Positions 1 through 41,629 of a stretch of DNA of 64,000 bases are shown piece by piece. Origin of the DNA: a virus; the IMG/VR virus record IMGVR_UViG_3300045912_000789, positions 64,001 through 128,000 of that record. One strand, given 5' to 3'. Made by a program: the position numbers and the translations under genes. The stretch's first letter is position 1, and each line of letters opens with the position of its first letter. Under the pieces are notes generated by a model. It saw only the letters and a program-made list of their open reading frames with translations. It was not told the origin of the DNA and did not search any database.

Positions 1-25
1 TGAGATCGATCTTGGGCATGTTCTC

Positions 26-14625: not shown

Positions 14626-14631
14626 TCGGGC

Positions 14632-18265: not shown

Positions 18266-19221
18266 TGAACGCGTACGACGTCTTCTACGAGGAGGTCACG
18301 AAGTCGGCGACAGCCACACGGGCGCTCACCCGTGCTGCTCGCTGGCTGACCGAATCGCCCGGGCGAACCGCCCTGGTCGGTGCCGGAGTCGGTGCCGCCC
18401 AGGGCGCGCTCATGCACGGGGACGAAGGCGTCGGTGCGGCAGCCCTCAAGGGCGGCCTTCGAGGGGCGGCGGTCGGTGGAGCTGCCGGCGGGCTCGGGCG
18501 CGCCTACCGCGACACCCGTCTGCTCAACCCGGCGCTGTCGTCGGGCGCGGCGGTGGGCGAGACCGCGAAGCGGATCGGTCAGGGCATCAAGGACTTCGGC
18601 AAGCGTCAGATCCACGGCTTCACCGGCGCGTACGCCGACCAGGCCGGTGAGATCGGCATGCGCAGTCGAGCTGCTGCGTCCAAGAAGATTGATCTCCTTC
18701 GCAAGCGCCAGGCCGATCTGGCCGCTCACGGAGAGCTGACCGACAAGGCGAAGAAGAAGCTCGTCGAGGAGGCGAAGGGTCTCCGCGAGTGGGGCGCCGG
18801 CGGAGACGCGGCGCTCAAGGCGGGGATCACGAACATCCCCGGCATCGTGAAGGGCATGGCGACGCGCCCGTTCTCCACGATGAAGGCGATGGGCAAGGAC
18901 ATGGTCGGCGGAGGCGGAGCCCTGGGTACCTCGGTCGCGCTCGGGCTCCCCCTCGCCATCGCAACTCCCGATCTGGCTCGCGGAGACGAGAGTGCGCACG
19001 GCGGGCGGTCCATGAGGCAGAAGCTCGTGGGCGTCGGCTCGGGTCTCGTCGGAGGCGCACTCACCGCGGGCGTTCCCGTTCTTCCCCAGCTCGTGGGCGG
19101 CGTGGCCGTCGACGCAGCAGCGAGCAAGGCGCTCGGCGGGAAGAAGCGTCTCGCGAAGGCCTCTCGTGAGGCCGGACAAGAGGCGATCAACACCACCCTC
19201 GGCGTTCCCGGAGGGACCTGA
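18265..19221 (+). CDS. glycine-zipper protein with N-terminal leader MNAYDVFYEEVTKSA
   Basis: TGATG coupling; multiple GxxxG hydrophobic segments. Confidence 0.7.
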   Translation: MNAYDVFYEEVTKSATATRALTRAARWLTESPGRTALVGAGVGAAQGALMHGDEGVGAAALKGGLRGAAVGGAAGGLGRAYRDTRLLNPALSSGAAVGETAKRIGQGIKDFGKRQIHGFTGAYADQAGEIGMRSRAAASKKIDLLRKRQADLAAHGELTDKAKKKLVEEAKGLREWGAGGDAALKAGITNIPGIVKGMATRPFSTMKAMGKDMVGGGGALGTSVALGLPLAIATPDLARGDESAHGGRSMRQKLVGVGSGLVGGALTAGVPVLPQLVGGVAVDAAASKALGGKKRLAKASREAGQEAINTTLGVPGGT

Positions 19222-21143
19222 TGTTCTTCAGCGGCGTTTCAGGTTCTGCCCTCGGCATGGGTGGTCGGATGGCGGTGAGCGGCAACGCGAACCGCAGCGA
19301 GATCCTCGGCCGTAGGTACCAGCCCTTCGCGAACCCCTTCTTCGATCAGGCGAGCACGTACACGCCGCCGTCGATCAAGGCACTGTTCGGGTTCTGTCGG
19401 TTCTACTTCCTGACGCACGGCATCATCAACGCCGTCGTCACCAAGGCCGCCGAGTACCCGGTCACCGATCTCATCCTCCAGCACAAGGACGAGGGCGTCC
19501 GCTCGCGGTGGGAGGAGCTGCTGCTGGGCGTGATGAACTACCGCGTCCACCAGTACGAGATCAACCTCGACTACTTCGTCTACGGCAACGCGTTCCTCAG
19601 CGCGAGCTTCCCGTTCCGCAAGAAGCTGATCTGCGGCAACAGCATGTGCCGCGCAGAGCACGACTGCCTCAACGTCCGGCCGAGCTGGCGCTACATCAGC
19701 GGTCGGTTCTGGTTCCAGTGCCCGACCTGCGGTCAGACCGACTTCGCTCGGAGCCGCGACGACTACTATCCGAAGTACAGCGAGATCGGTCTGATCCGCT
19801 GGAACCCGGAGTACGTCCACATCTTCTACAACGAGGCCACCGGCCGGATGGACTACGGGCTCGACATCAGCCCGGACTTCCGCGCGCAGGTCATGATGGG
19901 CCGCAAGGATCTCGTCGCGACCACACCCGAGATCTTCCTCGAAGCCGTCCGCACGCACCGTCAGCTCGTGTTCGACAAGTCCGAGGTCTTCCACATGCGG
20001 AGGCCCGGGCTGTCCACGATGTCGCGCGGCTGGGGCATCCCGCTGCTCATGCCGGTGCTGAAGGATGCCTTCTACATCCAGGTGATGCGCAAGGCGCAGG
20101 AGGCCGTGCTCCTCACGCACCTCGTGCCGCAGATCTTCCTGTTCCCGCAGCCGGCCACCGCCGGCGCGGATCCGTTCACGACGGTGGACCTCGCGAACTG
20201 GCGAGACCACATCCGGCGCGAGCTGGCGCGCCAGCGCGTCGACCCCAGCTACTACGGCATCCTGCCGTTCCCGCTCGGTCACCAGGTCATCGGCGAGAAC
20301 GGGCGCAGCCTGCTGCTGATGCCGGAGATCCAGCAGATGTACGAGATCATGGTGGCGGGCCTCGGCTTCCCCATCGATCTCGTCTTCGGTCACGGCACGT
20401 ACGCCGGCACCAGCGTGTCGATGCGCATGCTGGAGAACTTCTTCCTCTCGAACGTGCTCGGCCATCACCGCCTGCTCGACTGGGTGCTGAAGCGGATGGG
20501 CGCGTACATGAACTGGCCGCTGCCGCAGGGCCGCTTCAAGCCGTTCCGCATGGCGGACGATCTCCAGCGCCAGGCGATGATGATGCAGCTCAACCAGTTC
20601 GGGAAGGTGAGCGACGCCACCCTGCTCTCGTACACCGATCTCAAGGTCGAGGACGAGGCGGAGCTGATGCTCAAGGAGGCGAAGGTCAAGGCGGAGGCGC
20701 TCCGACAGAAGACGCTCGTCGAGGCCGAGGCCCAGGGTGAGGCTCAGCTCGTGATCGCCAAGTACCAGGCACAAGCCCAGGCGGCGATGCAGAAGGGCAT
20801 GCTGAAGGAGACCGCGCCGAAGCGGACGCCGTTCGACGAGATCCAGGGTCAGAGCGCAGCAGCCCAGCCGGGCGGCTACTCGATGGACGCCGTCGCGGCG
20901 GCTCTGGCGAACAAGATCAAGACGATGCCGCCCGAGCAGCAGAAGGTGTACCTCCAGCAGCTCCAGCAGAAGGCCCCCGAGATGGGCGAGCTGCTGGCGC
21001 AGCAGGGGCTCATGATGCCGCCCGAGGCCGGGGCGGTCCTGCCGGGCCAGGACGGCTCCCAGGGCGCGATGCCGGCCCCTCCGGCGGTCGACATGCGCCC
21101 GATGCCCGAGCAGCTCCCTCCGCGCCGCGCAGGGGCCGTCTGA
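19221..21143 (+). CDS. portal protein (putative) with Zn-finger insertion
   Basis: YFLTHGIINAVVTKAAEYP, DYFVYGNAF, FHMRRP, GWGIP motifs; helical C-terminus with Q/P tail. Confidence 0.65.
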   Translation: MFFSGVSGSALGMGGRMAVSGNANRSEILGRRYQPFANPFFDQASTYTPPSIKALFGFCRFYFLTHGIINAVVTKAAEYPVTDLILQHKDEGVRSRWEELLLGVMNYRVHQYEINLDYFVYGNAFLSASFPFRKKLICGNSMCRAEHDCLNVRPSWRYISGRFWFQCPTCGQTDFARSRDDYYPKYSEIGLIRWNPEYVHIFYNEATGRMDYGLDISPDFRAQVMMGRKDLVATTPEIFLEAVRTHRQLVFDKSEVFHMRRPGLSTMSRGWGIPLLMPVLKDAFYIQVMRKAQEAVLLTHLVPQIFLFPQPATAGADPFTTVDLANWRDHIRRELARQRVDPSYYGILPFPLGHQVIGENGRSLLLMPEIQQMYEIMVAGLGFPIDLVFGHGTYAGTSVSMRMLENFFLSNVLGHHRLLDWVLKRMGAYMNWPLPQGRFKPFRMADDLQRQAMMMQLNQFGKVSDATLLSYTDLKVEDEAELMLKEAKVKAEALRQKTLVEAEAQGEAQLVIAKYQAQAQAAMQKGMLKETAPKRTPFDEIQGQSAAAQPGGYSMDAVAAALANKIKTMPPEQQKVYLQQLQQKAPEMGELLAQQGLMMPPEAGAVLPGQDGSQGAMPAPPAVDMRPMPEQLPPRRAGAV

Positions 21144-21162: not shown

Positions 21163-21184
21163 AGCCCGGGGCTGTCCCCGGGCT
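21163..21184. terminator. bidirectional hairpin between convergent genes
   Basis: 9-bp stem agcccgggg/ccccgggct. Confidence 0.6.
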
Positions 21185-22625
21185 ACGACCACAGCTTGTA
21201 GAGGTTCGGCGGGGTGTAGTCCGCCAGGACCCTCTCGATGTGCTTCCACTGGGGGTGGGAGCGTACGGCGTTCTCGATGTCCGGGCTCGATGCCCCGTGC
21301 GGCTTCAGGAGCGCGAGGAACGAGATCGTGTCGTTCTCCGTGACGTCCCGCAGAGCCTCACGGACCATGATCGATTCACGGTTCATGCGGTGCAGACGGT
21401 CCATCACTGTCTCCCAGTCGGCGATCGACGAGGCGTCGGTGATGCGGAGGTTCTTGGCGGCGCGGTCCGCCTCGTTCTCGATGTTCGGCAGACGCTTCAC
21501 TCGGCCTGGGTGATCGGTGAGGAAGCGCCTGAGCACGACCGGCCCGAGCTTCTCGGCGTACGGCAGAGCCGCAGCCCGCAGCCCAGGCTGCTTCGTCACC
21601 GGCTCGATCAGCATCCAGTCCATCTCGTCGAGGATGTTGATGATCCCGATTGAGCGCACAGCGCGGACCTCGTCGATGGTGGGGGCGCGCCCGATGCGCT
21701 CCAGGATCTCCTTGCGGACGTCCGGAGCGCTCTGGGCGAGCTGGCGCAGGCCCATCACGTAGTGCTCTTCGGAGGTGTCGCTTCGGAAGAGCGCCACCAT
21801 CTTCCGCGACCCTTGGAGATCGTCGAACAGGCTCGCGGCTCTCTGTGGCGTGCAGAGCCGGACGAAGACGGCCATGTCCGCGTAGCGGAACCCGCCCTTC
21901 TTGTCGCCGGTGCACAGCTTGCGGGCCTGGTCGAACGCTGCCTCGCGCATGGCAGGCAGCACGTCGCGGTTCTTCAGGCCCGAGATCATCGCGAACGCTT
22001 CGATGTTCTGGGGCCCGAGCCGCTGCTTCAGGCGGTGGGTGTAGCTCTCGGGCGTGAACGCACCTTCGAGGTAGAACGAGTCGACCTGATCATCCATCGC
22101 GACACGAGGGAGCCGAAGCTCCTCGAAGTCGGGGATGACCCAGGTGCGCGTCATGTTCCGATCCGTGAACCACTTCCCCCAGTCCATCTTGCCGAGGTCG
22201 GGGTCGCGGAAGAACTCCGGCATCTTCGCCGCCGCCCACCGATCCCGCGACTTGATCAGCGCCGCACGCTCTTCGAGGACGAGCTTCGCCGCTTCCTCGT
22301 TCCCGAACACGGCGTAGTACGCGGCGATGTGGAGCGGGTCGCTGAGTCCGTGATCGTCGTCGGTCTTGTACGGGTTCTTGTACCCGATGCCAGCCGTTCG
22401 TAGCCGCACCGGGTTGATCCCGTACGCCACCGCCTTCGACCACGTCACGTCGCTGTCGAGCTGGCTGGTCTCCTGCACGAGGCCCAGGATCTGTCGTAGA
22501 CGATCCCCGGACGCCATGAGCATCGCGTCGAAGGTCCGGTTCTCCGAGACGCTGATGTAGCTGTACCTGAAGAACCGCTCTCGGATGATCTGGTTCGCCA
22601 GGTTCTGGATGAGAGAGATCACCAT
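21183..22625 (-). CDS. hypothetical alpha-helical protein (480 aa) downstream of MoxR-vWA
   Basis: Overlaps the vWA stop; long ORF with coding-like bias. Confidence 0.7.
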   Translation of the reverse strand: MVISLIQNLANQIIRERFFRYSYISVSENRTFDAMLMASGDRLRQILGLVQETSQLDSDVTWSKAVAYGINPVRLRTAGIGYKNPYKTDDDHGLSDPLHIAAYYAVFGNEEAAKLVLEERAALIKSRDRWAAAKMPEFFRDPDLGKMDWGKWFTDRNMTRTWVIPDFEELRLPRVAMDDQVDSFYLEGAFTPESYTHRLKQRLGPQNIEAFAMISGLKNRDVLPAMREAAFDQARKLCTGDKKGGFRYADMAVFVRLCTPQRAASLFDDLQGSRKMVALFRSDTSEEHYVMGLRQLAQSAPDVRKEILERIGRAPTIDEVRAVRSIGIINILDEMDWMLIEPVTKQPGLRAAALPYAEKLGPVVLRRFLTDHPGRVKRLPNIENEADRAAKNLRITDASSIADWETVMDRLHRMNRESIMVREALRDVTENDTISFLALLKPHGASSPDIENAVRSHPQWKHIERVLADYTPPNLYKLWS

Positions 22626-23830
22626 GAGACGTCCATGAAGAAGTTGCGCCCCCAGGGCTGAGGTCGACCGTTCTGCGGGATGACCCAGATCGTGTTGGGG
22701 TAGGCCCGCTCGGGCAGGAAGATGTGCCCGTCCGTGAGGCATGCGCAGGCCTTCGGCTTGAACTTGTCGTACAGCTCGAAGACGCCGCGCACCGAGGTGT
22801 GGCTGTGGGCTCCGGAGAGGAACTTCACGTTCTCCAGGATCTTCGCCGGATGCTTGGTCCGATGGACCTCGCGGACCACGGCGTCGAAGGTCACGACGAT
22901 CGTCTCGGTTGCGCGCATTGCTGCGGGCATCACGTTCGAGATGAAGGTCTTCATCAGGGTAGGTCCGACGGAAGCCGAGACGTCGATCGCGAGCAGGAGC
23001 TTCTGTTCCTTCACCGACCGCATCGACGGCAGCGTGATGTCGGGGAAGTATCTCGCCTTCGGAGGGGCGTACGTCGGCATGTCGTAGCCCATGTCGGCGA
23101 GGAGCCGGCCGCGCAGCAGCCTCGACCAGGGCACGCTGCCCTTGATGATCTCTTCGAGTCGGCTGGATACGGTCTTGCCGAACATCTGCTCCAGCGTCTG
23201 GTTCTTCACCTGCTGCTGGATCAGGACGGCCTGCTGAAGCTCCTCGGTGAACTTCCGGCGGAACTCCTCCTCCTCCTGACCGACCGTCGACTTGTTCTCC
23301 GCGTCCCGATCGAACAGGAAGTCGGTGCCCTTCTCGATCTCGCCCTTGCCCTTCGCCGGAGCCGGCATGGGGTGCTTCTTCTCGATGAGGGCGTCGTAGA
23401 TCTGCTCGGCGGTCATGTCCTTCGCCCACTCCGGCGGGATCACGCCGTCCTCCGGCGGCTTCCACTGCTTGCCACCGTCTCGCGAGAGGATGCTGCACGC
23501 CTCTCGGACGACCACGATGTCCGCGGCGATGTTCCAGACCTTGCGGTTGCGATCACCGCATCGGGCGACGTGGTTGAAAAAGATGTGCAGCCACTCGTGG
23601 AGCGTGTCGAACACGCGCCCGTCGTGCTCGTTCTTCTTGATCCACTTCGGGGCGTAGTGCACGCGGCGCCCGTCGGTGGCCATGGTGTCGATCGTGGGGT
23701 CTTCCACGACCTCTACGGCCTCTCCCAGGTAGGAGAGGCCGCAGAGCGGGAAGAACAGCAGCAGGTCCTGGAGGGCCCGCCGGAACATCTCGTAGGCCTC
23801 ACGGTCCTTGATGCTGTTCTCGATGATCAC
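22619..23830 (-). CDS. DUF2201-type metallopeptidase-vWA protein
   Basis: TMATDGR, HEWLH (HExxH), WNIAADIV, MIDAS DVSAS, LTDG. Confidence 0.88.
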   Translation of the reverse strand: MIIENSIKDREAYEMFRRALQDLLLFFPLCGLSYLGEAVEVVEDPTIDTMATDGRRVHYAPKWIKKNEHDGRVFDTLHEWLHIFFNHVARCGDRNRKVWNIAADIVVVREACSILSRDGGKQWKPPEDGVIPPEWAKDMTAEQIYDALIEKKHPMPAPAKGKGEIEKGTDFLFDRDAENKSTVGQEEEEFRRKFTEELQQAVLIQQQVKNQTLEQMFGKTVSSRLEEIIKGSVPWSRLLRGRLLADMGYDMPTYAPPKARYFPDITLPSMRSVKEQKLLLAIDVSASVGPTLMKTFISNVMPAAMRATETIVVTFDAVVREVHRTKHPAKILENVKFLSGAHSHTSVRGVFELYDKFKPKACACLTDGHIFLPERAYPNTIWVIPQNGRPQPWGRNFFMDVSW

Positions 23831-25032
23831 GACGTGGTTCCTTGGTCTGTGGCAGCCGAGATCTTGCTGCCCGGGACGGCCTTCTGCTTCCCGTCGGAGG
23901 TCAGCGTGTACTCGGCGAGCATCTCGTCTCCCGTCTCGGGGAAGTGGCTCGCGATGTTCACGCGGACCTTGTGCTTGAGCTGCACGATCAGCGCGACGCG
24001 CATCTCGCCGTCGAGAGCAGGGACCCACTTCTTCAAGCCCACGTGCTTCTTCTCGACGCCCTTCACGTTGAGGTACTGGGCGACGGCGAAGACCGAAGCG
24101 TACTGCTGCATCCGGCGAGCAGCGGCGTCGCCGGAGAGCTGAAGGTTCCCGCGGTGTAGGATCTCCTGGACGTCGACCTTCTGGATGATCTCGTACCAAG
24201 CCCAGAAGTCGTTCGCGACGTGGTCGCCGACCTTGCGCGCGACGATGCCCTTCCAGTTCTCCTTCGCTCCGTTCTGGAACACGTCCTCCACCGGGTTGAA
24301 GTACTCGAAGAGCTGCTGCGAGGCCTCCCACCACCCGCGCGGGGTGGGGAACCGCGCCACGCCTTCCTTCCACTCGTGGAGGTGGGCCGGCTTGAACTGG
24401 AGGTAGCCGATCACGGCTTCGTGGATCTCGCCGCTGTCGCGGCCGTACTCGGTGAAGCTGAGGATGTCCGGTGCCATCTCGATGATGGTCATGCGGGTCC
24501 GCAGCGACTCCGAGATCTCGTTCGCGTAGATGTCGTCGTCGAGCCTGTTCCCGGCGCCCATGATGAGGGTGCCGGGGTGCAGGTCCTTGTCGCGGAACTT
24601 GCGGTTCGCGGTGACGCCGAGCAGGGCGCCCTGCACGACCGGCGGAGCCTTGTCGAGGTCGTCGAAGAAGAGGAAGCCCGGCTGGATGCACGCCATGGCG
24701 GCGTAGCGGTTCAGCACCCACTCCATGTACGCGCCCCGCGCGCCGGCCTTCTCCGACTCGGTGCCGTTCTGCATCAGCCACCGGATCATGCCGGGAACGG
24801 GCACCCCCGACACGTCCGTGGCGTCGCTGTTCTCGCCGCAGTTGATCGCGAGGAGCGTGAGCGAGTAGTGCTCACAGGCGCGACGAGCGATGGCGGTCTT
24901 GCCGCCGCCCACCGGCCCGAGGAGCAGCGGGTTGTTGAGCGGGTGTTCGACGCCCTTCTGGATCAGCTTCGTCTGCATCTCCAGCTCGCGGCGTACCAAG
25001 ATCTCGGCCGGCTTGAACCCGTACGTCGTCAT
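23827..25032 (-). CDS. MoxR-family AAA+ ATPase
   Basis: GPVGGGKT, LFFDDLD, GAGNR, LRTR, FPTPRGW. Confidence 0.88.
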   Translation of the reverse strand: MTTYGFKPAEILVRRELEMQTKLIQKGVEHPLNNPLLLGPVGGGKTAIARRACEHYSLTLLAINCGENSDATDVSGVPVPGMIRWLMQNGTESEKAGARGAYMEWVLNRYAAMACIQPGFLFFDDLDKAPPVVQGALLGVTANRKFRDKDLHPGTLIMGAGNRLDDDIYANEISESLRTRMTIIEMAPDILSFTEYGRDSGEIHEAVIGYLQFKPAHLHEWKEGVARFPTPRGWWEASQQLFEYFNPVEDVFQNGAKENWKGIVARKVGDHVANDFWAWYEIIQKVDVQEILHRGNLQLSGDAAARRMQQYASVFAVAQYLNVKGVEKKHVGLKKWVPALDGEMRVALIVQLKHKVRVNIASHFPETGDEMLAEYTLTSDGKQKAVPGSKISAATDQGTTS

Positions 25033-25412
25033 TCGTCCTCCTCGTCTTCCTCTTCTTCGTCTTCGTCTTCGTCGTCTTCGGCTTCCTCGGCGTACATCGC
25101 CTGTTCGACGAGATCCGTGTAGCACTGCTCGTGCGCGTACTTCGTGACTGTCTCGTCCGTGACGAAGCCGAGCTGGTTGTTCGGCAGCTTCACGATCTGG
25201 AGCTTGGCGTCCGGGTCCGGCACGAACATCGGGACGTCGAACTCTCGGCTCGGGAAGATCATCCCCGGGATCATCATGATGACGGGGGTGCCCACCCCGA
25301 CGTTCTCTTCCCCGCAGAGATCGCACGGGGCGGTGATGTCGTCGAAGCCCTCGAAGTTGTTCGGGGGCTCCGCTTCGGCTTCCATCTGCTCTCTGCTGAT
25401 CTTGTCCTTCAT
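25029..25412 (-). CDS. hypothetical protein with acidic tail
   Basis: CDLC...HEQC; poly-D/E C-terminus; ATGA coupling. Confidence 0.65.
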   Translation of the reverse strand: MKDKISREQMEAEAEPPNNFEGFDDITAPCDLCGEENVGVGTPVIMMIPGMIFPSREFDVPMFVPDPDAKLQIVKLPNNQLGFVTDETVTKYAHEQCYTDLVEQAMYAEEAEDDEDEDEEEEDEEDE

Positions 25413-25520
25413 TCAGCCTCCGATGAGCCATCTCCAGAACGGGCTGTTTGTCACGGCGTCGACCACACCGAGGGCGAAGCCAGCGGCGAACGACCAGAAC
25501 ACGACCGAGAAGAGGCTCAC
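25413..25520 (-). CDS. small membrane protein (35 aa; not in ORF track)
   Basis: MSLFSVVFWSFAAGFALGVVDAVTNSPFWRWLIGG; GTGA coupling and GGAGGA RBS. Confidence 0.55.
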   Translation of the reverse strand: MSLFSVVFWSFAAGFALGVVDAVTNSPFWRWLIGG

Positions 25521-25657
25521 CCGGGTTCCTCCGAGAGGCCCTCGATGGACTTCTCCAGCGCCTCGTTCAGGTCGTTCTCGAACCTGGTCAGGCTGTCGTC
25601 GTGCTCGTACTGGTCCTGGTCTTCGGCTTCCTTCGTCTGTTCGTTGGGATCGTGCAT
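25517..25657 (-). CDS. small acidic protein (46 aa)
   Basis: GGAGG RBS directly after the promoter motif. Confidence 0.6.
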   Translation of the reverse strand: MHDPNEQTKEAEDQDQYEHDDSLTRFENDLNEALEKSIEGLSEEPG

Positions 25658-25671
25658 CTGGTCCTCCACGC

Positions 25672-25703
25672 CTGCTGATAGCTGCGAGGACGCTCGCGTT
25701 GAC
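25672..25703 (-). promoter_or_regulatory. Phage-specific promoter-like motif GTCAA-N16-GCTATCAGCAG
   Basis: Repeated motif immediately upstream of the RBS. Confidence 0.65.
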
Positions 25704-25728
25704 CCATATTCGAGGGCGCGGGTAGACT
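25699..25728 (+). promoter_or_regulatory. sigma70-like promoter TTGACC-N18-TAGACT for the RNAP gene (leaderless predicted)
   Basis: GTG start 6 nt after the -10; no RBS. Confidence 0.6.
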
Positions 25729-25734
25729 GCGTGG

Positions 25735-28700
25735 GTGCTGACATCGGACCCCCACCACCAGTTCGAGGAACTGAAGGATCAGCTCCTTCAGCAGATCGGC
25801 CAGACTTTCCCGGTGAAGGACCGGTCGGGTCGGTTCGAGGTGCGCGTGAGCGACCTCAAGATCGAGGATCGTCTCGGGGTCGACGACATCAAGGACCAGT
25901 TCAAGGCGAAGATGGAGGGCCGGTCGTGGGCCGCTCCCGTCGTCGGAACGATCGAGATCGTCGACACCACGTCGGGGAAGACGCTGGTCAGCAAGAAGAA
26001 CTCGCCGGTCGCCAAGATCCCGAAGCTGACGCGTCACTACAGCTACATCATCGGCGGGTCGGAGAAGTTCATCGCGAACCAGTGGCGCCTGCGTCCGGGC
26101 GTCTACGTGAAGGCGACCGAGAAGCCCGGCGAGTTCGAGGCGCAGTTCCAGCTCGCCAAGGGCCGCAGCTTCGATCTCCAGACCGGTGACAGTGGCGAGA
26201 TCTACATGAAGCTGGGGTCGCGGAAGATCCCGCTCTACAGCGTTCTGAACGCCATGGGCGTCGACGACGAGGCGATGAAGAAGGCGTGGGGTGCCGACGC
26301 CTACGAGGCATCGCGCAAGAAGGCCAACGTCGCGCGCGACCTCAAGTCGCTCTACGAGACCTGGCGCAAGGAACCGCTCGGGGAGAAGGCCGATCCGGTC
26401 CTGGAGACGAAGGCCATCTTCGAGGGCACCCGCATCGATCCGGTCGTGGCGCACGCCAACGTCGGTGTGAAGTCCGAGCGGGTCGACAGTAGCGTGCTCT
26501 TCGAGGCCTCGAAGAAGCTGCTGGACGTCGCCGCCAAGCGGAAGGATCCGGACCCCATCGACAGCCTCCGATACAAGGAGCTGTGGACCGCGAAGGACCA
26601 GTTCGTCGATCGGATCGCCAAGGCCGCACCCGACATCGAGTCTCGGATCCAGCGCGCGCTGGGGAAGCCCACGGTTCAGCGTCGTCTGGCGTCGGGCGAC
26701 CACAGCGTCCTGCGCGACGTGTTCATGCCCGACCTCATCCAGCGCCCGCTCTACCACGTCTTCACGACGTCCCTGGCGGCGAACGGGAAGCAGACGAACC
26801 CCGTCTCGATGCTCTCGGACCGGTCCATGGTGACGATCACGGGACCGGGCGGCATCCAGAACCCGCACGCGCTGTCGAAGAGCAACACGTCGCTCGACCC
26901 GTCGCACCTCGGCTTCCTCGACCCGGTGTTCACGCCCGAGTCGAACGCCGGCGTGAACACGCACCTCACCTTCGGTGTGTCGATCAAGGATCGGAAGCCG
27001 TACGTCCGGCTCTACAACACGAAGACCGGGAAGATGGAGGACGTCGACGCCGCGACCGCGGCAGTCTCGAACGTTGTCCTCCCCGACCAGGTGCGGTGGG
27101 AGAAGGGCACGCCGAAGCCCCTCAGCAAGACGGTCCGGATGTCGGACTCCCGCGGCCACATGCGCGACGACATCGCGTTCTCCTCGGCCGACTACGTGAT
27201 GCCGAGCGCGGCGCAGGTCTTCGCCGTCGAGACGAACCTCGTGCCGTTCATGCAGAACGACAGCGCCGGACGCTCGACGATGTCGGCTCGGCACATGGCC
27301 CAGGCCATCTCGGTGGTCGGCCGTGAGCCGCCCAAGGTGCAGGTCGAGGCCGGCGCCGGGAAGTCGTTCGAGGCGATCATGGGCTCCGGGTTCCTCGCGC
27401 ACCGCGCCAAGGCGGACGGTGTGGTGAAGGAGATCAAGAAGGACGAGATCGTCATCCAGGGCAAGGACGGGACGCATTCGGTTCACCTCTATCACCACTA
27501 CCCAACGAACGATCCGAAGGGCCAGCTTCACAGCTCGCCGCTGGTGAAGCCGGGGGACCGCGTCCGAGCCGGGCAGATCGTCGCGGACAACAACTACACG
27601 AAGAACGGCACGCTCGCGCTGGGCGCGAACCTGCGCGTGGCGTACCTGGCCAACGGCTCGAACCACGAGGACGGCATCGTCATCTCGCGAAGCGCCGCCG
27701 ACCGCTTGGCGTCCGAGCACCTCTACAAGCCCAGCATGCTCCTCTCCGACACCCACGTGCTCGGGAAGAAGGAGTTCCTGATCGGCAAGCCGGGGGTCTA
27801 CTCGAAGGATCGCATCGACAAGATCGGTGACGACGGCATCGTCAAGCCCGGTACGAAGGTGAAGCCGGGCGACCCGCTCGTGCTGGCGCTCGGCGAGGTC
27901 ATGCTGCCCGGGACCGCCGACATCAACGCGAAGTACAAGATCGGCAAGCGCCTCCGCAACAAGTACCAGAACAGCTCGATGGTCTGGGACGGCGACTACG
28001 AGGCCGAGGTCGTGCGTGCGGAGCGCGTCGGCAAGAACGTCGTCGTCCACCTCAAGACCCTGGAGCCGGCGCAGATCGGCTCGAAGATCTCCACGCGCCA
28101 CAGTGCGAAGGGCATCGTCACGGAGATCATCGACGACAAGGACATGCCCCACGACGAGAAGGGCAAGCCCGTGGAGATGCTGATCAACCCGGTCAGCGTG
28201 CCCGGACGCATGAACCCCGGCCAGCTCCTGGAGACGGCCGCGGGGAAGATCGCGGACAAGACGGGACGCCCGTACTTCGTCCGCAACTTCCAGGGAGGCA
28301 CCGACTACCTCAAGAAGATCCAGGACGAGCTGAAGCAGCACGGACTGAAGGACACCGAGACGCTCTACGACCCGAAGACGGGCCGGAAGCTCGGCGACGT
28401 GATGGTCGGTCCGCACTACGCCTTCCAGCTCGAACACCAGATCGACAAGAAGACGCACGTGCGCGCCGGCGGCTACGGCAGCGAGCTGCTCCAGTTCGAC
28501 GCGCCGAAGATCCACTACGACAACGACACGCGTGTCCCTCGCGGTGGCGGCCACACCGGCGCGCAGAGCCTCGGCAGCCTTGGCATCTACGCCGCGCTGG
28601 CCGCCGGCCTGAAGGACAACCTGCGCGAGATGCAGACGCTGAAGTCGGACCAGCCGCAGGCCCGTGAGGTCTGGGGCGCGCTGGCGAACGGTGAGCGCAT

Positions 28701-31700
28701 CCCGGCACCGAAGATCCCGTTCGTCTTCAAGAAGTTCGAGTCGATGCTCACGGGCCTCGGCGTGAACGTCGAGAAGTCGGGCGCTGAGATCCGCCTGATG
28801 CCGCGCAGCGACGCCGAGACGCGAGCCATGAGCCGTGGCGAGATCACGCGCCCCACCCGTAGCATCCGCGGCAAGGACGACAAGCCGGAGCAGGGCGGGC
28901 TCTTCGACCCGAACATCACCGGCGGTCCTGCGGGCCAGCACTGGGGCCACGTCGAGCTGGTCGAGCCGATGCCGAACCCGGTGTACGCCCGGGCCATCGC
29001 GCACACGCTCGGCATCAAGGAGACCGACATCCCCAAGATCATCGAGGGGAAGGCGAAGCTGCCGAACGGAGAGATCGGCGGCAAGGCGTTCCGCGACGCT
29101 CTGAAGTCGATCGACATCGACAAGGAGATGAAGGCGACGGCCGCGGCGCTGAAGGATCCCAAGGTGAAGGGCGCGCAGCTCGACAAGCTGCACTTCAAGT
29201 ACCGCGCGCTGAAGACCGTGAAGGACGCCGGCAAGCGGCTCGACGAGGCCTGGACCATCAAGGCCGTGCCGGTGCTGCCGCCCGTGTTCCGCCCGCAGGC
29301 CACGCTGCCGGACGGGACGATCAAGAACAACCCCCTCAACGCGCTCTACAAGCGTCTCGGCATGGTGAACGAGTCGCTCAAGAAGGGCGAGGGCAAGGTT
29401 CCCTACAACAACACGCTCGATGCGCGCGCCGGTCTCTACCAGGAGCTGTCGAACCTCTTCGGCACCACGCCGAAGGGGAAGAAGGCGCTCGACCTCGACA
29501 TGCGCGGCACGAAGGAAGATCCCGACAAGACGCTGCCCGGCATCATCCACATGATCTCGGGTGACCAGCCGAAGGACGGGTTCTTCCAGGACAAGATGAT
29601 CGCGAAGAAGCAGGACTACACGTCCCGTGCGACCATCGTCGTGGACCCGAACCTGTCGGTGGACGAGATTGGTCTGCCGAAGAAGATTGCCATCGAGCTG
29701 ATGCGCCCGATGGTGGCGCGCCGCCTCGTCCAGGCCCGCATCCGGCCGGACGAGGCGCAGAAGATGATCAGCCGCAAGGACCCCATCGCCATCAAGGCTC
29801 TGGAGCAGGAGGTCCAGCACCGTCCCGTCCTGATGAAGCGCGACCCCGTGCTGCACCAGTACGGTCTCGTCGCCCAGCGGGCGAAGCTCACCGACGACCC
29901 GGCGATCAAGGTGAGCCCGCTCATCCTGCCGCCGCTCGGCGGCGACATCGACGGCGACACCGTGGCGCTGATGGTCCCCCTCACCCAGGAGGCGATCGAA
30001 GAGGCGAAGCGCATCATGCCGTCGCAGCGCACGCTCAGCGACAGCTCGGGCGACGTGCTGTTCTCGCCGGCGAACGAGTCGGCCCTCAGCCTCTACCGCA
30101 TGTCGATCCCCCGCGGGAAGCACCAGGGGGCGCTGAAGGACAAGGACGAGGCGGAGGCGCTGTTCCGCTCGAACCGCATCCACCTCAACCAGCAGATCCA
30201 CGTGAAGGGCGTGGGCGACACCACGCTCGGACGGCTCCGCATCGCCGAAGTCCTGCCGGAGAAGTTCCGCCCCGACGTCCTCACCAAGCTCGACAAGCCG
30301 TTCGATCGCAAGGTCCAGGAAAGCATCCTGAAGGACGTCGCGAAGAACATGCCGAAGCACTTCGTCGAGACCGTCGACGGGATGAGCCGGCTGGGCTTCA
30401 AGATGGCCTACGAGTCGGGCCACACCGTCGGGCTGAAGGACATCGAGCCGCTGCGTGAGCACCGCGACAAGATCATCGCCGACGCCACCAAGGAGGTCGC
30501 GGCGATGAAGGCGCGCGGCGCGGACGCCGCAGAGACGACCGAGGCCTGGCTCCGGGCGACCCGGAAGATCCACGACGTCTACAACGACGTGCTCAAGGGC
30601 AAGCCCACGAACGTCTCGGACATGGCACCGGCGCCGCTGGGCTCCGGCATCAAGGCGAAGCGCGAGCAGTTCCAGGGGCTCATCATGGCCCCCATGCTGG
30701 TCGAGGATCACCTCGGCACCCCCTCGAAGGTGCCGATCACGAAGAGCTTCGCCGAGGGCATCGACCTCGGCGGCTACTTCCTCCAGGCCGCCGGCGCGCG
30801 TCGCGGCGTCATCCAGAAGACCGACTCGGTGCGCGAGCCCGGCTACATGAGCAAGCTGCTCGTGCAGGCGAACATCGACCAGCCGATCACCTCGGCCGAC
30901 TGCGGAACGACCCACGGGATGTCGATGCCGGTGACCCACAAGGACATCGTGGATCGGCACCTCGCCAGCGACGTGAAGATCGGCGACCACCTGTTCAAGG
31001 CCGGCACGGTCGTCACTCCAGACGTGCTGTCGAAGGCCAAGGAGAAGGGTGTCGATCAGCTCGTCGTCCACAGTCCGCTGAAGTGCCGGATGCCGCAGGG
31101 CGTCTGCTCGAAGTGCATGGGCGTGCACCCCAGCGGCAAGGAGTATCACCTCGGTGAGAACGTCGGCATCGTGGCGGCCCAGGCGCTCGGTGAGCGAGCG
31201 GCGCAGCTCATGCTGAAGCAAACGCACGGCGGCGGTATCGTGTCCACGGCCGGCCACAGCGTCTCGGAGTTCAGCGACGTGCAGCGTCTCTTCGACGCCG
31301 CGAAGCGGGGGCGCGAGGACGCAGCCCTGGCTCCCAACAACGGCAAGATCGTCGGTGTCCACCAGAGCAAGGCGGGCGACTGGGTCATCCAGTTCGAGCG
31401 CGGCAAGGTGAAGACCCGGCAGAAGCCGCTCCCGCACGTGAAGCCGGGCACCGAGGTGAAGCGCGGCGACACGCTCACCGCAGGCGACCCGAACATCCAC
31501 GATCTCCTGGCGACGAAGGGTCTCGACGCCGTCCAGGCTCACATGGTCGACAAGATCGGTACCATCTACGGCCGTGAGGGTGTGCTTCGTCGTCACGTCG
31601 AGCTGGCGGTTCGGAACGCCACGGGCGTCGTGCGGGTCACCGATCCCGGAGACCACGACGGCTACGTCCGTGGCGACTACGTCCAGAAGTCGGTGCTCGA

Positions 31701-31965
31701 CGAGATCAACCGCGGCGTCCTCAAGGGCAAGGAGGCGGTGAAGTACCAGCCGATGCTGCTGCCCACGAAGATGATCCCGCTGCGCCGGCAGGAGGACTGG
31801 ATCGCGCGCCTTCAGGGCGAGCGCATCGGCCAGAGCGTCCTGCGCGGCATCCAGCACGGCCACAAGTCGGACGTGACCGGACGACACCCCATCCCCGCTC
31901 TCGCCGTCGGTGTGACGGTCGGCGCGCCCGCCGACGCTCGCCCGTTCGGCACCGCTGCACGCTGA
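25735..31965 (+). CDS. rpoBC: DNA-directed RNA polymerase, fused beta-beta' single chain (2076 aa)
   Basis: beta motifs (NHEDG, GSKISTRHSAKG, PGRMNPGQ, LEHQIDKK) followed in frame by beta' motifs (GHVEL, PVLPPVFRP, KQDYTSR, RDPVLH, GGDIDGD, bridge helix, QALGERAAQL..THGGG). Confidence 0.95.
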   Translation: MLTSDPHHQFEELKDQLLQQIGQTFPVKDRSGRFEVRVSDLKIEDRLGVDDIKDQFKAKMEGRSWAAPVVGTIEIVDTTSGKTLVSKKNSPVAKIPKLTRHYSYIIGGSEKFIANQWRLRPGVYVKATEKPGEFEAQFQLAKGRSFDLQTGDSGEIYMKLGSRKIPLYSVLNAMGVDDEAMKKAWGADAYEASRKKANVARDLKSLYETWRKEPLGEKADPVLETKAIFEGTRIDPVVAHANVGVKSERVDSSVLFEASKKLLDVAAKRKDPDPIDSLRYKELWTAKDQFVDRIAKAAPDIESRIQRALGKPTVQRRLASGDHSVLRDVFMPDLIQRPLYHVFTTSLAANGKQTNPVSMLSDRSMVTITGPGGIQNPHALSKSNTSLDPSHLGFLDPVFTPESNAGVNTHLTFGVSIKDRKPYVRLYNTKTGKMEDVDAATAAVSNVVLPDQVRWEKGTPKPLSKTVRMSDSRGHMRDDIAFSSADYVMPSAAQVFAVETNLVPFMQNDSAGRSTMSARHMAQAISVVGREPPKVQVEAGAGKSFEAIMGSGFLAHRAKADGVVKEIKKDEIVIQGKDGTHSVHLYHHYPTNDPKGQLHSSPLVKPGDRVRAGQIVADNNYTKNGTLALGANLRVAYLANGSNHEDGIVISRSAADRLASEHLYKPSMLLSDTHVLGKKEFLIGKPGVYSKDRIDKIGDDGIVKPGTKVKPGDPLVLALGEVMLPGTADINAKYKIGKRLRNKYQNSSMVWDGDYEAEVVRAERVGKNVVVHLKTLEPAQIGSKISTRHSAKGIVTEIIDDKDMPHDEKGKPVEMLINPVSVPGRMNPGQLLETAAGKIADKTGRPYFVRNFQGGTDYLKKIQDELKQHGLKDTETLYDPKTGRKLGDVMVGPHYAFQLEHQIDKKTHVRAGGYGSELLQFDAPKIHYDNDTRVPRGGGHTGAQSLGSLGIYAALAAGLKDNLREMQTLKSDQPQAREVWGALANGERIPAPKIPFVFKKFESMLTGLGVNVEKSGAEIRLMPRSDAETRAMSRGEITRPTRSIRGKDDKPEQGGLFDPNITGGPAGQHWGHVELVEPMPNPVYARAIAHTLGIKETDIPKIIEGKAKLPNGEIGGKAFRDALKSIDIDKEMKATAAALKDPKVKGAQLDKLHFKYRALKTVKDAGKRLDEAWTIKAVPVLPPVFRPQATLPDGTIKNNPLNALYKRLGMVNESLKKGEGKVPYNNTLDARAGLYQELSNLFGTTPKGKKALDLDMRGTKEDPDKTLPGIIHMISGDQPKDGFFQDKMIAKKQDYTSRATIVVDPNLSVDEIGLPKKIAIELMRPMVARRLVQARIRPDEAQKMISRKDPIAIKALEQEVQHRPVLMKRDPVLHQYGLVAQRAKLTDDPAIKVSPLILPPLGGDIDGDTVALMVPLTQEAIEEAKRIMPSQRTLSDSSGDVLFSPANESALSLYRMSIPRGKHQGALKDKDEAEALFRSNRIHLNQQIHVKGVGDTTLGRLRIAEVLPEKFRPDVLTKLDKPFDRKVQESILKDVAKNMPKHFVETVDGMSRLGFKMAYESGHTVGLKDIEPLREHRDKIIADATKEVAAMKARGADAAETTEAWLRATRKIHDVYNDVLKGKPTNVSDMAPAPLGSGIKAKREQFQGLIMAPMLVEDHLGTPSKVPITKSFAEGIDLGGYFLQAAGARRGVIQKTDSVREPGYMSKLLVQANIDQPITSADCGTTHGMSMPVTHKDIVDRHLASDVKIGDHLFKAGTVVTPDVLSKAKEKGVDQLVVHSPLKCRMPQGVCSKCMGVHPSGKEYHLGENVGIVAAQALGERAAQLMLKQTHGGGIVSTAGHSVSEFSDVQRLFDAAKRGREDAALAPNNGKIVGVHQSKAGDWVIQFERGKVKTRQKPLPHVKPGTEVKRGDTLTAGDPNIHDLLATKGLDAVQAHMVDKIGTIYGREGVLRRHVELAVRNATGVVRVTDPGDHDGYVRGDYVQKSVLDEINRGVLKGKEAVKYQPMLLPTKMIPLRRQEDWIARLQGERIGQSVLRGIQHGHKSDVTGRHPIPALAVGVTVGAPADARPFGTAAR

Positions 31966-33089
31966 TGGCACGGACCACTGGATCGCCGTCCCACAACCGC
32001 TTCTCGCACTTCCGGTGCGAGGAGTGCACGATCACGGACGTCAACCGCAAGACGTTCACGGTCACGGCCGAGTCGCGCCACACCGCCAAGACGATCGAGG
32101 ATATCCAGGTCCTCGTGCCGTACCACCACTACGCCAACGGCGAGGGCATTCACCACCTTCCCGAGGTCGGCGCGATCTGCCTCGTCGGCTGGCCGAACGA
32201 CAACACGCCGCCGTTCGTCATGGGCTACCTCGGGGCGGCGAGCGTGGAGCAGAGCACGGATGGCGCCCCCGAGCGCTCCACCGTGGCTGCCGAAGGCTCG
32301 GACACCGACGCCAGCTTCCGCTCGCGCCGCCCGCAGCTCAACCCGGGCGACATCGCGTTCACCACCCGAGACGAGAACTTCATCATCCTGCGGCGCGGCG
32401 GTGTCCTACAGATCGGTGCCACGCCGATCTCCCAGCGCGTCTACATCCCCGTCTTGAACTTCATCAAGGACTTCGCCGAGAACTACGAGATGCACACGTT
32501 CGGCGGCGACGTGTCGTGGACCGTGGGTCGTCAGGAGGACGATCCTTCGGGCGACGCACCCGCGACGTACACGTTCCACCTCAACGAGTTCGCCCAGGAC
32601 GCGAAGGCCACGGTGCGCATCCAGCACATGCCGCTGGGCGGCAGCGACAAGGCGGCGTGGCAGGTGCACATCGCTCCGCAGGGCATCGATCGGGATGACG
32701 GCAGCGTCGAGAACGAGAAGTACTCGATGGTCATCACCACGGGGGGCAACTTCGCCGAGATCATCGGGGCAGACCGCAGCGTCCACGTGAAGGGGAACGA
32801 CGAGCTGACCATCGACGGCAGCCGAACCACCGACATCACCGGCGACGACGTCACCACGGCGAACGGCAAGATCGAACTCATCGCGAGCCAGAGCGCCGTC
32901 CTCGCCGGCCTCATGGTGAAGCTCGCCAGCCGTAGCGCCAGCGATCCCGCCGTTCTCGGCCGCGAGCTGGTGCAGGTGCTGAGCACCGCGATGTTCATCG
33001 TGGATCCCACGACGAACCAGGCGACGCCCTCCCCGGCGTTCGTCGCAGCCCTCCAGACGATTCTGTCCAGGAAGGTGTTCCTGGAGTAA
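31965..33089 (+). CDS. baseplate central spike-like protein (gp5/GpV OB fold + beta-helix)
   Basis: LPEVGAICLVGW; VKGNDELTIDGSRTTDITG repeats; PAVLG motif. Confidence 0.6.
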   Translation: MARTTGSPSHNRFSHFRCEECTITDVNRKTFTVTAESRHTAKTIEDIQVLVPYHHYANGEGIHHLPEVGAICLVGWPNDNTPPFVMGYLGAASVEQSTDGAPERSTVAAEGSDTDASFRSRRPQLNPGDIAFTTRDENFIILRRGGVLQIGATPISQRVYIPVLNFIKDFAENYEMHTFGGDVSWTVGRQEDDPSGDAPATYTFHLNEFAQDAKATVRIQHMPLGGSDKAAWQVHIAPQGIDRDDGSVENEKYSMVITTGGNFAEIIGADRSVHVKGNDELTIDGSRTTDITGDDVTTANGKIELIASQSAVLAGLMVKLASRSASDPAVLGRELVQVLSTAMFIVDPTTNQATPSPAFVAALQTILSRKVFLE

Positions 33090-36714: not shown

Positions 36715-38548
36715 GGCATCGAGACCCATCTTCGCCGACATCGACTACAGCTCCTTCGAGGGTGGGGACCGCTCGAAGCAAAGATACGTCGATGATCCGT
36801 TCGCCACCAGCGCTGCCCGGGCGGCTCGGTCGCCGGCGCAGATCGCGCTGCGCACCTCCCAGTGGACCTCCCACATGGTGCGGGTGAAGGACGGCGACCG
36901 GGGGCGGGTCTCGCCCATGGTGTTCGATGAGCGGCGCTACCTGCTGCGGCCGTACGACACCGAGGCGCGCGAGATCCTCTTCATGACCAGCCGCCAGACC
37001 GAGAAGTCGACGACGCTAGGCAACAAGCTGATCGCGCTCTGCGGGATGAACTGGTACCAGAACGCTCTGTTCGTCACCCCCTCGGCGACGCAGACGAAGG
37101 TCTTCAGCTCGGCGCGTATCGACGACATCGTCGAGATCAGCCCGATGGTCAAGGCGCTCACCCACAAGAGCCTGACCTGGAACATCCTGGAGAAGGAGTT
37201 CCTCACCCAGTCGAAGATCTACCTGCGGTACGCGTTCCTCAACGCTGATCGTATCCGCGGTATCTCGGTCAGCAGCATCTTCTACGACGAGGTGCAGGAC
37301 CTCCTGAAGGACGTCATCCCCGTCATCCGTGAGTCCGCGTCGCGCTTCCGCAACGCGCTGCACGTCTACTCGGGTACGCCGAAGACGTTCGACAACTCGA
37401 TCGAGGGGATCTGGGGAAAGCAGTCGACCATGTCCGAATGGGTAGTTCCGTGCGAGCACCACACCCCCTGCCACTGGATCGTGCTGGGGCCGAAGAACAT
37501 CGGGAAGAAGGGGCCCATCTGCGAGCGCTGTGGGCACGCGATCAACCCCGAACATCCGCAGGCGCAGTGGGTGGCGATGAACCCCGGCGCGACCGTCGAG
37601 GGCTACCGCATCTGCCGTCTGATGGTGCCCTGGTACTTCAAGCCGGACTTCACCGACAAGGACCCGTACAAGGCGTGGAAGTCGATCATCCACACCCTGG
37701 AGACCTATCCCACCGCTCAGTTCATGAACGAGGTCATGGCGATCTCGTACGACAGCGGAACGAAGCCGCTGACGCGCGGTGAGGTGGCCCGGGCGTGCGA
37801 CGAGACCGACACGTACATGATGGACGAGGAGCAGGTCGCAGAGCTGGCGAAGTCGCACCAGCTCTACGGCGGGATCGACTGGGGCACCGGCGAGAACGCC
37901 TACACCGTCATGACGGTGGGCGGGTACGTCCGTGGGGACAGCAGCTTCCAGATCCTCTACGCCAAGCGCTTCGACGGCTTGCTCACGGACCCCGAGCCGC
38001 AGATGAAGGAGATCATCCGGCTCATCAACCGGTTCCGCCTGAAGTACGTCGGCTGCGACTACGGCATGGGCTTCGTGCAGAACAAGAAGCTCACCAGCAT
38101 CTTCTCGGCCAAGAAGATCTTCCAGTTCCAGTACGCCGCCCGAGCGCCGAAGAAGATCGTCTACAAGGCAGCCCTGAACCGGTCGCTCGTCTTCCGCACG
38201 GCGGTGATGGCGGACATCTTCTCGGCGATCAAGACGATGAAGATCCGGCTGCCGTCGTGGGAGGTCTTCAAGGCCCCCTACGCCGAGGACCTGCTCAGCA
38301 TCCACGCCGAGTACTCGGACACGCTGCGCATGATCAAGTACGACAAGCCACGCAGCATCCCCGACGACACCTTCCACTCGATCCTCTACACGATGATCGT
38401 GAGCTTCTTCGATCACCGACGACCCGACATCATCGCGCCCATCCAGGAGGTCTCGACCGAGGAGGCCGCCGCGCGTGTCCGCGAAGAGGTCGCCATCGAA
38501 GAGATCGAGATGCACGTGGCGAACGACTGGTCGCGCAGCGAATGGTAG
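36713..38548 (+). CDS. terL: terminase large subunit (GpA-like)
   Basis: SRQTEKST, YDEVQD, SGTPK, Zn finger, nuclease GIDWG and PDDTFHS. Confidence 0.9.
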   Translation: MASRPIFADIDYSSFEGGDRSKQRYVDDPFATSAARAARSPAQIALRTSQWTSHMVRVKDGDRGRVSPMVFDERRYLLRPYDTEAREILFMTSRQTEKSTTLGNKLIALCGMNWYQNALFVTPSATQTKVFSSARIDDIVEISPMVKALTHKSLTWNILEKEFLTQSKIYLRYAFLNADRIRGISVSSIFYDEVQDLLKDVIPVIRESASRFRNALHVYSGTPKTFDNSIEGIWGKQSTMSEWVVPCEHHTPCHWIVLGPKNIGKKGPICERCGHAINPEHPQAQWVAMNPGATVEGYRICRLMVPWYFKPDFTDKDPYKAWKSIIHTLETYPTAQFMNEVMAISYDSGTKPLTRGEVARACDETDTYMMDEEQVAELAKSHQLYGGIDWGTGENAYTVMTVGGYVRGDSSFQILYAKRFDGLLTDPEPQMKEIIRLINRFRLKYVGCDYGMGFVQNKKLTSIFSAKKIFQFQYAARAPKKIVYKAALNRSLVFRTAVMADIFSAIKTMKIRLPSWEVFKAPYAEDLLSIHAEYSDTLRMIKYDKPRSIPDDTFHSILYTMIVSFFDHRRPDIIAPIQEVSTEEAAARVREEVAIEEIEMHVANDWSRSEW

Positions 38549-38566
38549 CAAAGTGAGATTGCCGAG

Positions 38567-38588
38567 GCCCCGAGCTTTCGCCCGGGGC
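38567..38588. terminator. hairpin between convergent genes
   Basis: gccccgagc-tttc-gcccggggc. Confidence 0.5.
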
Positions 38589-38611
38589 TCCGGCTTCCTC
38601 ACTCGCCGCGG

Positions 38612-39331: not shown

Positions 39332-39687
39332 CGCCGCCGCCGGACCTGGCGATCGTCCTCGTCGGCCTCTTCCTCGGCCACCTCTACCCGGACCCTCGGG
39401 TATTCCGCGTCGATCTTGTCGCGGATGCCCTCGGCCAAGGACCGGTCGGCGATGAGGATGCTGGCGACGGTCTCCAGCTTCTCGGCCTTCTCCAGCCGGT
39501 GGCGGTGGCGCTGCTCGGCGCGGTCCTTCGCCTGGCGCTCTTCTCGCTCATCGCGAGACGTTTCGATCCTGTGCTCGACCCATCGGTAGAGCCCGACCGA
39601 GGCTCCGCCGGCGAGGGTGACGCACGATAGGCCGAGAGCCACCACTGCATCGTGGTGGCTCAGGATCTCCCGGATGATCTCGTTCAT
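39316..39687 (-). CDS. single-TM coiled-coil protein (123 aa)
   Basis: TGATG coupling to gyrB; N-terminal hydrophobic helix. Confidence 0.65.
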   Translation of the reverse strand: MNEIIREILSHHDAVVALGLSCVTLAGGASVGLYRWVEHRIETSRDEREERQAKDRAEQRHRHRLEKAEKLETVASILIADRSLAEGIRDKIDAEYPRVRVEVAEEEADEDDRQVRRRRSKRR

Positions 39688-41627: not shown

Positions 41628-41629
41628 GG

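Follow-up and report, generated by a model that had tools for sequence, protein, structure and literature searches.

The 64,000-nucleotide window described here corresponds to bases 64001-128000 of a 171,909-bp IMG/VR virus record (66% guanine plus cytosine, GC; 100% complete according to CheckV) and encodes, on its plus strand, a bacterial-type RNA polymerase (RNAP) whose beta and beta' subunits form one polypeptide. The record is a phage genome, as a preliminary description of the window made from the sequence alone had assumed, being complete by CheckV and carrying portal, terminase large subunit (TerL), major capsid and sheath genes. The RNAP gene and its parts are the following (window positions; aa, amino acids; nt, nucleotides):

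25735-31965, plus strand: gene for the single-chain beta-beta' RNA polymerase (2076 aa), starting with GTG and without an internal stop
25735-28785, plus strand: beta moiety, residues 1-1017 (lobes, fork, flap with tip helix, K784/K792/H901; without the insertions SI1 and SI2)
28786-31962, plus strand: beta' moiety, residues 1018-2076 (clamp helices, lid, rudder, DxDGD loop, bridge helix, trigger loop, Zn2 site)
29938-29958, plus strand: catalytic Mg loop GGDIDGD, residues 1402-1408
25699-25728, plus strand: sigma70-type promoter TTGACC-18 nt-TAGACT, ending 6 nt before the GTG start of the RNAP gene

The third codon positions of this open reading frame (ORF) have a GC content of 0.93, as in other real genes of the genome, and its N-terminus is kept from residue 1 throughout the family (alignment of 26 members). 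An antisense ORF of 2127 aa (25588-31971, minus strand) mirrors the gene; it is not a gene but a by-product of the GC-rich third positions of the plus frame. Pfam domains occur in the order Rpb2 domains 2, 3 and 6 (residues 120-918; Rpb2_6 at E 2e-55) and then Rpb1 domains 1, 2, 3 and 5 (residues 1018-1840, Rpb1_2 being among those matched), and the top matches among solved structures are bacterial beta' chains (E 4e-87). Alignment with E. coli RpoB and RpoC ends the beta part at residue ~1017, the equivalent of the last E. coli beta residue, and restarts beta' at about E. coli residue 20, which puts the junction at nt ~28786 and leaves 0-3 residues as linker. The preliminary description had seen beta and then beta' motifs in one 2076-aa frame, had put their junction near 28770-28790 and had called the product a single-chain, cellular-like RNAP; all of this holds, the ORF being intact and the protein aligning readily with bacterial enzymes.

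Several catalytic residues are invariant in the 26 family members, i.e. D1404, D1406, G1407 and D1408 of the Mg loop, K784 and K792 of beta (K1065 and K1073 in E. coli) and H901 (H1237), as are the Zn2 cysteines of beta' (C1723, C1784, C1791 and C1794). The trigger-loop histidine (H1831) is kept in at least 90% of members, so that the retention of this residue and of the beta catalytic residues was correctly recognized at the outset. The bridge helix aligns throughout, and bridge helix and trigger loop match E. coli residues 769-805 and 913-942. The GGDIDGD loop, highlighted earlier as a departure from NADFDGD, does lie at 29938-29958 and its three aspartates are invariant, but it is a derived trait of the subfamily: distant members keep NADFDGD or have GADHDGD, and Salmonella phage Arash has AADYDGD.

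AlphaFold2 models of each half were built from 67-row alignments. The beta' half reached a predicted local distance difference test (pLDDT) score of 90.4 and a predicted template modelling (pTM) score of 0.87, with query template modelling (TM) scores of 0.81-0.86 to bacterial beta' chains, and the beta half a pLDDT of 87.3 and a pTM of 0.81 (query TM 0.77-0.80 to bacterial beta chains). Only the flap tip and residues 906-943 have low confidence, and the flap with its tip helix is visible in both alignment and model. With its conserved catalytic signature and confidently modelled bacterial-like folds, the enzyme is apparently active. It is probably insensitive to rifampicin, since the alignment shows replacement of the rifampicin-pocket residues D516, H526 and S531 by K, D and T, respectively.

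The 2076 aa of the protein fall 673 aa short of the 2749 aa of E. coli beta plus beta', a difference close to the ~650 aa originally estimated, but the label 'minimal' that accompanied this estimate goes too far. About 420 of the ~670 missing residues belong to the E. coli lineage-specific insertions SI1, SI2 and SI3, the absent stretches being beta 229-370 (SI1), beta 937-1048 (SI2) and beta' 948-1187 (SI3 plus part of the jaw). The predicted folds span bacterial beta and beta' nearly end to end (TM 0.80-0.86), and in comparison with small bacterial enzymes each moiety is shorter by just ~100-180 aa. Real losses of widely conserved parts are the N-terminal 19 residues of beta', its C-terminal tail and the N-terminal Zn ribbon (E. 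coli 66-97; C70, C72, C85 and C88), the last of these being deleted here and in all phage-clade rows of the alignment. The elements on which sigma docks, i.e. the clamp helices and a flap tip of normal length, are retained, and lid and rudder are also present.

This architecture is widespread. A word-indexed search recovered more than 110 clusters with a fused RNAP at 52-100% identity, nearly all of ~2050-2100 aa and on contigs of up to 200 kb. In an exhaustive HMMER search with residues 500-1699 as a query spanning the junction, all 150 of the 150 listed representatives of 50%-identity clusters matched at E < 1e-181, giving at least 150 clusters; the full-length representatives listed match across the junction, a few others are shorter fragments, and 1945 representatives score below 1e-30. 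Representatives measure 2000-2150 aa, or as much as 4739 aa where inserts are present, and in many members inteins or homing endonuclease domains (PF14528, PF05204 and PF14890), from one to several per protein, stretch the RNAP to 2400-4739 aa; carriers include relatives P0012, P0041, P0064, P0199 and P0282. Inteins typically settle in essential proteins, at sites that are conserved. Divergence within the family is deep, some members being only 35% identical to one another, and the same junction, conserved in sequence, is found in hundreds of independent assemblies from JGI, ENA, NCBI and Logan. Among 185,579 species genomes no isolate or prophage bears the family, the only matches being on 32-176 kb contigs of metagenome-assembled genomes (MAGs) that look like mis-binned phage, and no cultured member of the fully fused family was present in the phage collection (August 2025 release). 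The literature searched contained no description of a fully fused, sigma-partnered phage RNAP. The architecture is real, conserved and unstudied; the kind of enzyme itself is known.

Among cultured phages the closest are D69, D181 and D148 of Vibrio and Arash (OQ632216) of Salmonella, with 28% identity over 97% of the length. Their enzymes resemble the window protein in that beta is fused directly to beta', the N-terminal Zn ribbon is missing and a homologous sigma factor is encoded; in Arash and D69 the RNAP gene also has a portal gene upstream of it, among virion genes as here. They differ in that beta' is cut in two, a protein of 1525-1527 aa comprising beta and the N-half of beta' and a separate gene encoding the C-half (606-609 aa) a few kilobases off, with inserted genes or a homing endonuclease between them, whereas the window ORF runs unbroken through this split point, near residues 1490-1525. 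The Arash paper annotates the two pieces (Gp206 and Gp216) as subunits and does not discuss the fusion (PMC10585845). The DNA inserted at the split site comprises about nine genes in Arash (L001/L035) and a homing endonuclease in D181 and D148, and this coincidence of split and inserted DNA suggests a once-continuous gene broken by mobile elements.

The protein is ~27% identical to bacterial subunits by sequence and 20-25% identical when aligned by structure. A quick-search LG+C20 tree with 36 rows and 1973 columns and one archaeon as root (SH-aLRT supports in brackets) placed the 11 bacterial rows, from about seven phyla, in one clade (99) and all phage RNAPs in another (98). Arash and D69 form the sister group (100) of the fully fused family, inside which the subfamily of the window is nested. 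A phylogeny had been proposed in the preliminary description, and in this one the protein falls outside the sampled bacteria and is not nested among ordinary RpoBC; the deep placement is provisional because the phage branches are long and the outgroup is single.

Fusions of the same topology, with the C-terminus of beta joined to the N-terminus of beta', occur in the RpoBC proteins of Helicobacter and Wolbachia and in engineered E. coli tethers, and they show that such a join is compatible with function. The bacterial fusions, ~2900 aa long, are normal cellular enzymes and continue to work with alpha, omega and host sigma, whereas the window protein has 2076 aa, is phage-borne and lies outside the sampled bacterial clade. 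Both barrels are also contained in one polypeptide in crAss-like gp66 and in YonO, and crAss gp66 is delivered by the virion. These single-chain RNAPs are barely alignable with cellular RNAP (PMC7481178), in contrast to the window protein, with its match to bacterial beta' at E 4e-87 and its nearly full beta/beta' domain set. The enzymes of phiKZ and AR9 are likewise phage-owned two-barrel RNAPs without alpha or omega, one set of which is packaged and injected, but they consist of 4-5 polypeptides in two paralogous sets without a sigma homologue, compared with one chain, one copy and a sigma here (PMC13282480, PMC7824862). A 2026 review describes the known jumbo-phage RNAPs in the same terms, as split into 4-5 chains and lacking a sigma homologue (PMC13282480).

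The multisubunit-RNAP-encoding Caudovirales (mReC; Weinheimer and Aylward, 2020; PMC7481178) have phage beta and beta' that can be aligned with cellular enzymes and branch outside cellular clades, but encode them in separate adjacent genes (1364-1371 plus 1005-1010 aa, or ~1011 plus 904 aa). Their capsid is gp23-like (PF07068), whereas the capsid candidate of this phage has no Pfam match. Membership of the present family in mReC was rejected: none of six sample ids of its IMG/VR contigs occurs in the part of the mReC contig rows compared, and the mReC subunits are separate genes. Cobetia phage Carin-5 has mReC-like gene sizes and layout, with sigma, beta and beta' as three adjacent genes, and groups with the fused family in the tree (98). 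Other unusual RNAPs were encountered on MAG contigs: a contig of 243 kb (L026) encodes a distinct beta-beta' fusion of 2072 aa, L028 shows a direct but partial fusion, L029 and L065 have an mReC-like gene order of beta' then beta, and in Thermotogota MAGs (L030-L032) there are mini fusions of 1283-1436 aa that contain only the C-terminal part of beta and the barrel region of beta'.

Pfam searches, for which positive controls gave matches in 14 control genomes, returned no match to alpha (RNA_pol_A_bac, RNA_pol_L) or omega (Rpb6) models and no direct match to the models for sigma regions 2, 3 and 4, either in the window or in the complete 171,909-bp genome, in agreement with the earlier statement that the window holds no alpha, omega or sigma gene. 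The phage does carry its own sigma outside the window: a sigma70-family gene of 276 aa lies at genome positions 37944-38774 (L005:17944-18774), ~51 kb upstream of the RNAP gene, and is a homologue (E 1e-21) of Arash Gp10, which itself matches Sigma70_r3. This sigma has 68 relatives, and a profile of 24 of them matches RpoD, SigA, RpoS and FliA over regions 2.2 to 4 (E 1e-13 to 1e-5), the match to RpoD (E 1e-13) having the regions in order. Sigma70_r3 was matched in 18 of the 24 family members and the region 4 model in three. The N-terminal ~95 residues of the phage sigma contain invariant RGRR and LW..W motifs. Sigma and fused RNAP were found on the same contig in all five relatives tested, two of which are only 36-38% identical. 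The original suggestion that the enzyme may work without alpha or sigma thus survives for alpha, as no alpha or omega gene was detected genome-wide, but not for sigma, whose gene is present and co-occurs with the RNAP.

The promoter in front of the RNAP gene ends only 6 nt ahead of the GTG, so a leaderless mRNA is predicted. Among five related loci, which comprise four distinct sequences, both hexamers are kept and the spacer drifts. Genome-wide, TTGACN-16..19-TAnnnT has 3 matches compared with 2.4 expected, so this sigma70-like class is not enriched overall, and it is the conservation in relatives that argues for the copy at the RNAP gene. The high GC content together with leaderless TTGACC-18-TAGACT promoters is only a hint at the host. 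A second class of signal is found on the opposite strand:

25675-25681, minus strand: CTATCAG element followed by GGAGG, heading the divergent leftward operon and conserved in relatives
25517-25657 (small ORF), 25029-25412, then the ATPase and HNH genes, minus strand: leftward operon behind the CTATCAG element
1483, 6779, 14583, 25675 and 41943, minus strand: CCTATCAG sites in the window

The element CCTATCAG occurs 12 times in the genome (1.3 expected), including once ahead of the sigma gene (genome 37921), and of the 16 CTATCAG sites 11 are located beside GGAGG at 20-28 nt ahead of a start codon. CTATCAG/CCTATCAG heads the replication, ATPase/HNH, topoisomerase and sigma operons as well as small genes of the right arm. 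It often stands directly after a terminator-like hairpin; the sites at 1483 and 6779 have no downstream start and may be due to chance. We regard CCTATCAG as a candidate phage-specific promoter or RNA signal, possibly restricted to the subfamily, as 12-kb loci of relatives with 36-38% identity contained no matches. The divergent control regions at 25649-25735 and 14560-14632 share their layout, with the same promoter geometry at 14596. Rightward, TTGACC-18-TAnnCT is followed after 6 nt by the start codon, again predicting a leaderless mRNA; leftward, on the opposite strand, the arrangement is GTCAA...CTATCAG-CAGG-GGAGG-ATG. The layout of 25649-25735 is kept in the close relatives L011, L012/L013, L015 and L016. 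The occurrence of two signal classes would fit a two-polymerase programme.

The other genes assigned in the window are:

26-14122, minus strand: leftward replication operon (helicase, DnaB-like helicase, family A DNA polymerase, UvsX-like recombinase, Cas4-like nuclease)
19221-21143, plus strand: portal protein (tblastn with Arash gp204, E 2e-70)
21183-25412, minus strand: leftward block of four genes, among them those of an HNH endonuclease and an ATPase
22619-23749, minus strand: HNH endonuclease, member of the four-gene block
23827-24948, minus strand: ATPase, member of the four-gene block
31965-33089, plus strand: Gp5/VgrG-like baseplate spike candidate, sharing 1 nt at its start with the RNAP stop codon
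36713-38548, plus strand: TerL (PHROG 675, E 5e-44; Arash gp1, E 8e-41)
39687-41774, minus strand: topoisomerase II large subunit
49298-50782, plus strand: major head protein candidate (PHROG 2522, E 1e-6)
59221-62325, plus strand: tail sheath (PHROG 2839, E 6e-18; PHROG 279, E 1e-16)

The RNAP gene is translationally coupled to the spike-like gene and lies within the virion-gene module. The spike candidate has weak matches only (Pfam Gp5_C and Phage_base_V, both under the Pfam cut-offs, and PHROG 430), and the capsid candidate has no Pfam match at all. The block at 21183-25412 separates the portal gene from the RNAP gene and looks like an insertion, because the two genes are almost adjacent in Arash and Vibrio D69. 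In both this phage and Arash, portal, RNAP and sigma genes lie within structural gene modules. Searching the phage's own genome by tblastn with the 2076-aa protein revealed no paralogue, leaving one RNAP copy; a second RNAP set was thereby ruled out, and with it a pair of virion and non-virion enzymes of the phiKZ style. A homologue of the Arash Gp217 helicase was not detected beside the RNAP gene by tblastn.

Taking these data together, we propose, at a probability of roughly 0.6, that the phage forms its own holoenzyme from the single-chain core and the phage sigma, and that this holoenzyme is probably packaged in the virion. The gene product would be the catalytic core of a phage-owned two-barrel RNAP of bacterial type, with beta and beta' as one polypeptide. 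The C-terminus of beta and the N-terminus of beta' lie close together in cellular RNAP, as known from structures and from natural and engineered fusions, so a direct join could replace the scaffolding normally given by the alpha dimer; such an alpha-free assembly fits with the genome, in which neither an alpha nor an omega gene was detected. Promoter recognition would be provided by the 276-aa sigma, which, judging from its conserved co-occurrence with the RNAP and the retained docking elements, may dock on the beta' clamp helices and the beta flap tip. The holoenzyme would then transcribe phage genes, the likeliest targets being the non-structural operons headed by CCTATCAG just before the ribosome-binding site. 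Phage N4 delivers its own virion polymerase with its DNA to start infection, and in a similar manner the present enzyme may be produced late, enter the virion and be brought in together with the DNA to begin the following round of infection. The location in the virion module, the leaderless promoter, the coupling to the spike gene and the virion proteomics of Arash all suggest this order of events. In the latter study Gp206, Gp216 and the sigma Gp10 were detected by mass spectrometry of particles, Gp206 with the top spectral count (PMC10585845). We rate the chance that the enzyme is packaged at around even.

A number of points weigh against this proposal. The Arash study called 88 proteins structural and its authors warn of carry-over of abundant infection proteins (PMC10585845), and the support for packaging comes from this one proteomics study, on a relative that is 28% identical. 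The sigma70-like promoter before the RNAP gene fits early expression by the host RNAP, in the style of T7, equally well. The sigma of the window phage matches no Pfam sigma model directly, and in the hidden Markov model alignment the Trp pair of sigma70 region 2.3 is replaced in it by Asn-Asn, so promoter melting may differ. No upstream -35-like element accompanies CCTATCAG, which might serve as a regulator site or as a signal in the RNA instead of a promoter. Finally, the sequence is compatible with the use of host alpha and omega.

Some of these points lend themselves to other explanations. If the host RNAP read TTGACC-18-TAGACT early in infection, an unpackaged single-chain RNAP and its sigma could then drive the middle and late genes, a T7-like logic which the conserved host-type promoter, with its leaderless start directly before the gene, and the carry-over caution of the Arash authors themselves both favour (PMC10585845). 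We consider this possible but doubtful, as the RNAP gene stands among virion genes and is coupled to the spike-like gene, Gp206 heads the spectral counts of the Arash virion proteome, and the sigma gene is preceded by CCTATCAG and not by a host-type promoter; the last point is awkward if sigma is needed for CCTATCAG, although read-through from upstream is possible. A chimeric enzyme, in which the phage chain joins host alpha2 and omega and possibly a host sigma, would agree with a fold that is bacterial throughout, with the host-like promoter and with the continued use of alpha by natural bacterial beta-beta' fusions. It appears unlikely, however, considering that every relative tested keeps its own sigma and that the RNAPs of phiKZ and AR9 form no stable complex with the alpha, omega or sigma of the host (PMC13282480); moreover, at 20-25% identity to bacterial subunits in structural alignments, the host contact surfaces are unlikely to have been kept.

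The remaining explanations concern the origin of the gene rather than the working of its product. Recent capture of a cellular rpoB-rpoC pair, or of an rpoBC fusion like those of Helicobacter and Wolbachia, would make this an ordinary bacterial RNAP in a phage, and bacterial beta' chains are indeed the top matches among solved structures. The low identity to bacterial subunits (~27% by sequence, 20-25% in structural alignments), the separation of bacteria (99) from phage RNAPs (98) in the archaeon-rooted tree of 36 rows, and the depth of a family whose members may be 35% identical and which no isolate genome was found to carry make such a capture very improbable. The fusion of two genes by a frameshift or an assembly error, the latter named in the preliminary description among the possible pitfalls along with a stop codon at the junction, has a negligible probability: the ORF has no internal stop, the fusion recurs in more than 110 clusters and at least 150 clusters at 50% identity, which excludes an assembly error at the junction, and the same conserved junction is seen across the independent JGI, ENA, NCBI and Logan assemblies.

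In its furthest form, which we put forward tentatively, our proposal is that of a self-sufficient two-gene machine without alpha or omega that is packaged, injected and reads CCTATCAG, is conserved in a clade of ~160-200-kb phages that is very large and has no cultured member, and belongs to a lineage that split from bacterial RNAP before the sampled phyla diverged. Such a machine would be the opposite of the phiKZ solution, with its many fragments and no sigma. With no fewer than 150 clusters at 50% identity, the family that encodes the single chain is a very large one; even so, the phage collection searched (August 2025) holds no cultured member of it. Should the single chain and its sigma prove active alone, they would offer a compact, probably rifampicin-insensitive and sigma-programmable polymerase for orthogonal expression. 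In that case they would also constitute the simplest known bacterial-type RNAP holoenzyme, made from two genes as opposed to five, and the long-standing question of what alpha and omega do beyond assembly would become testable.

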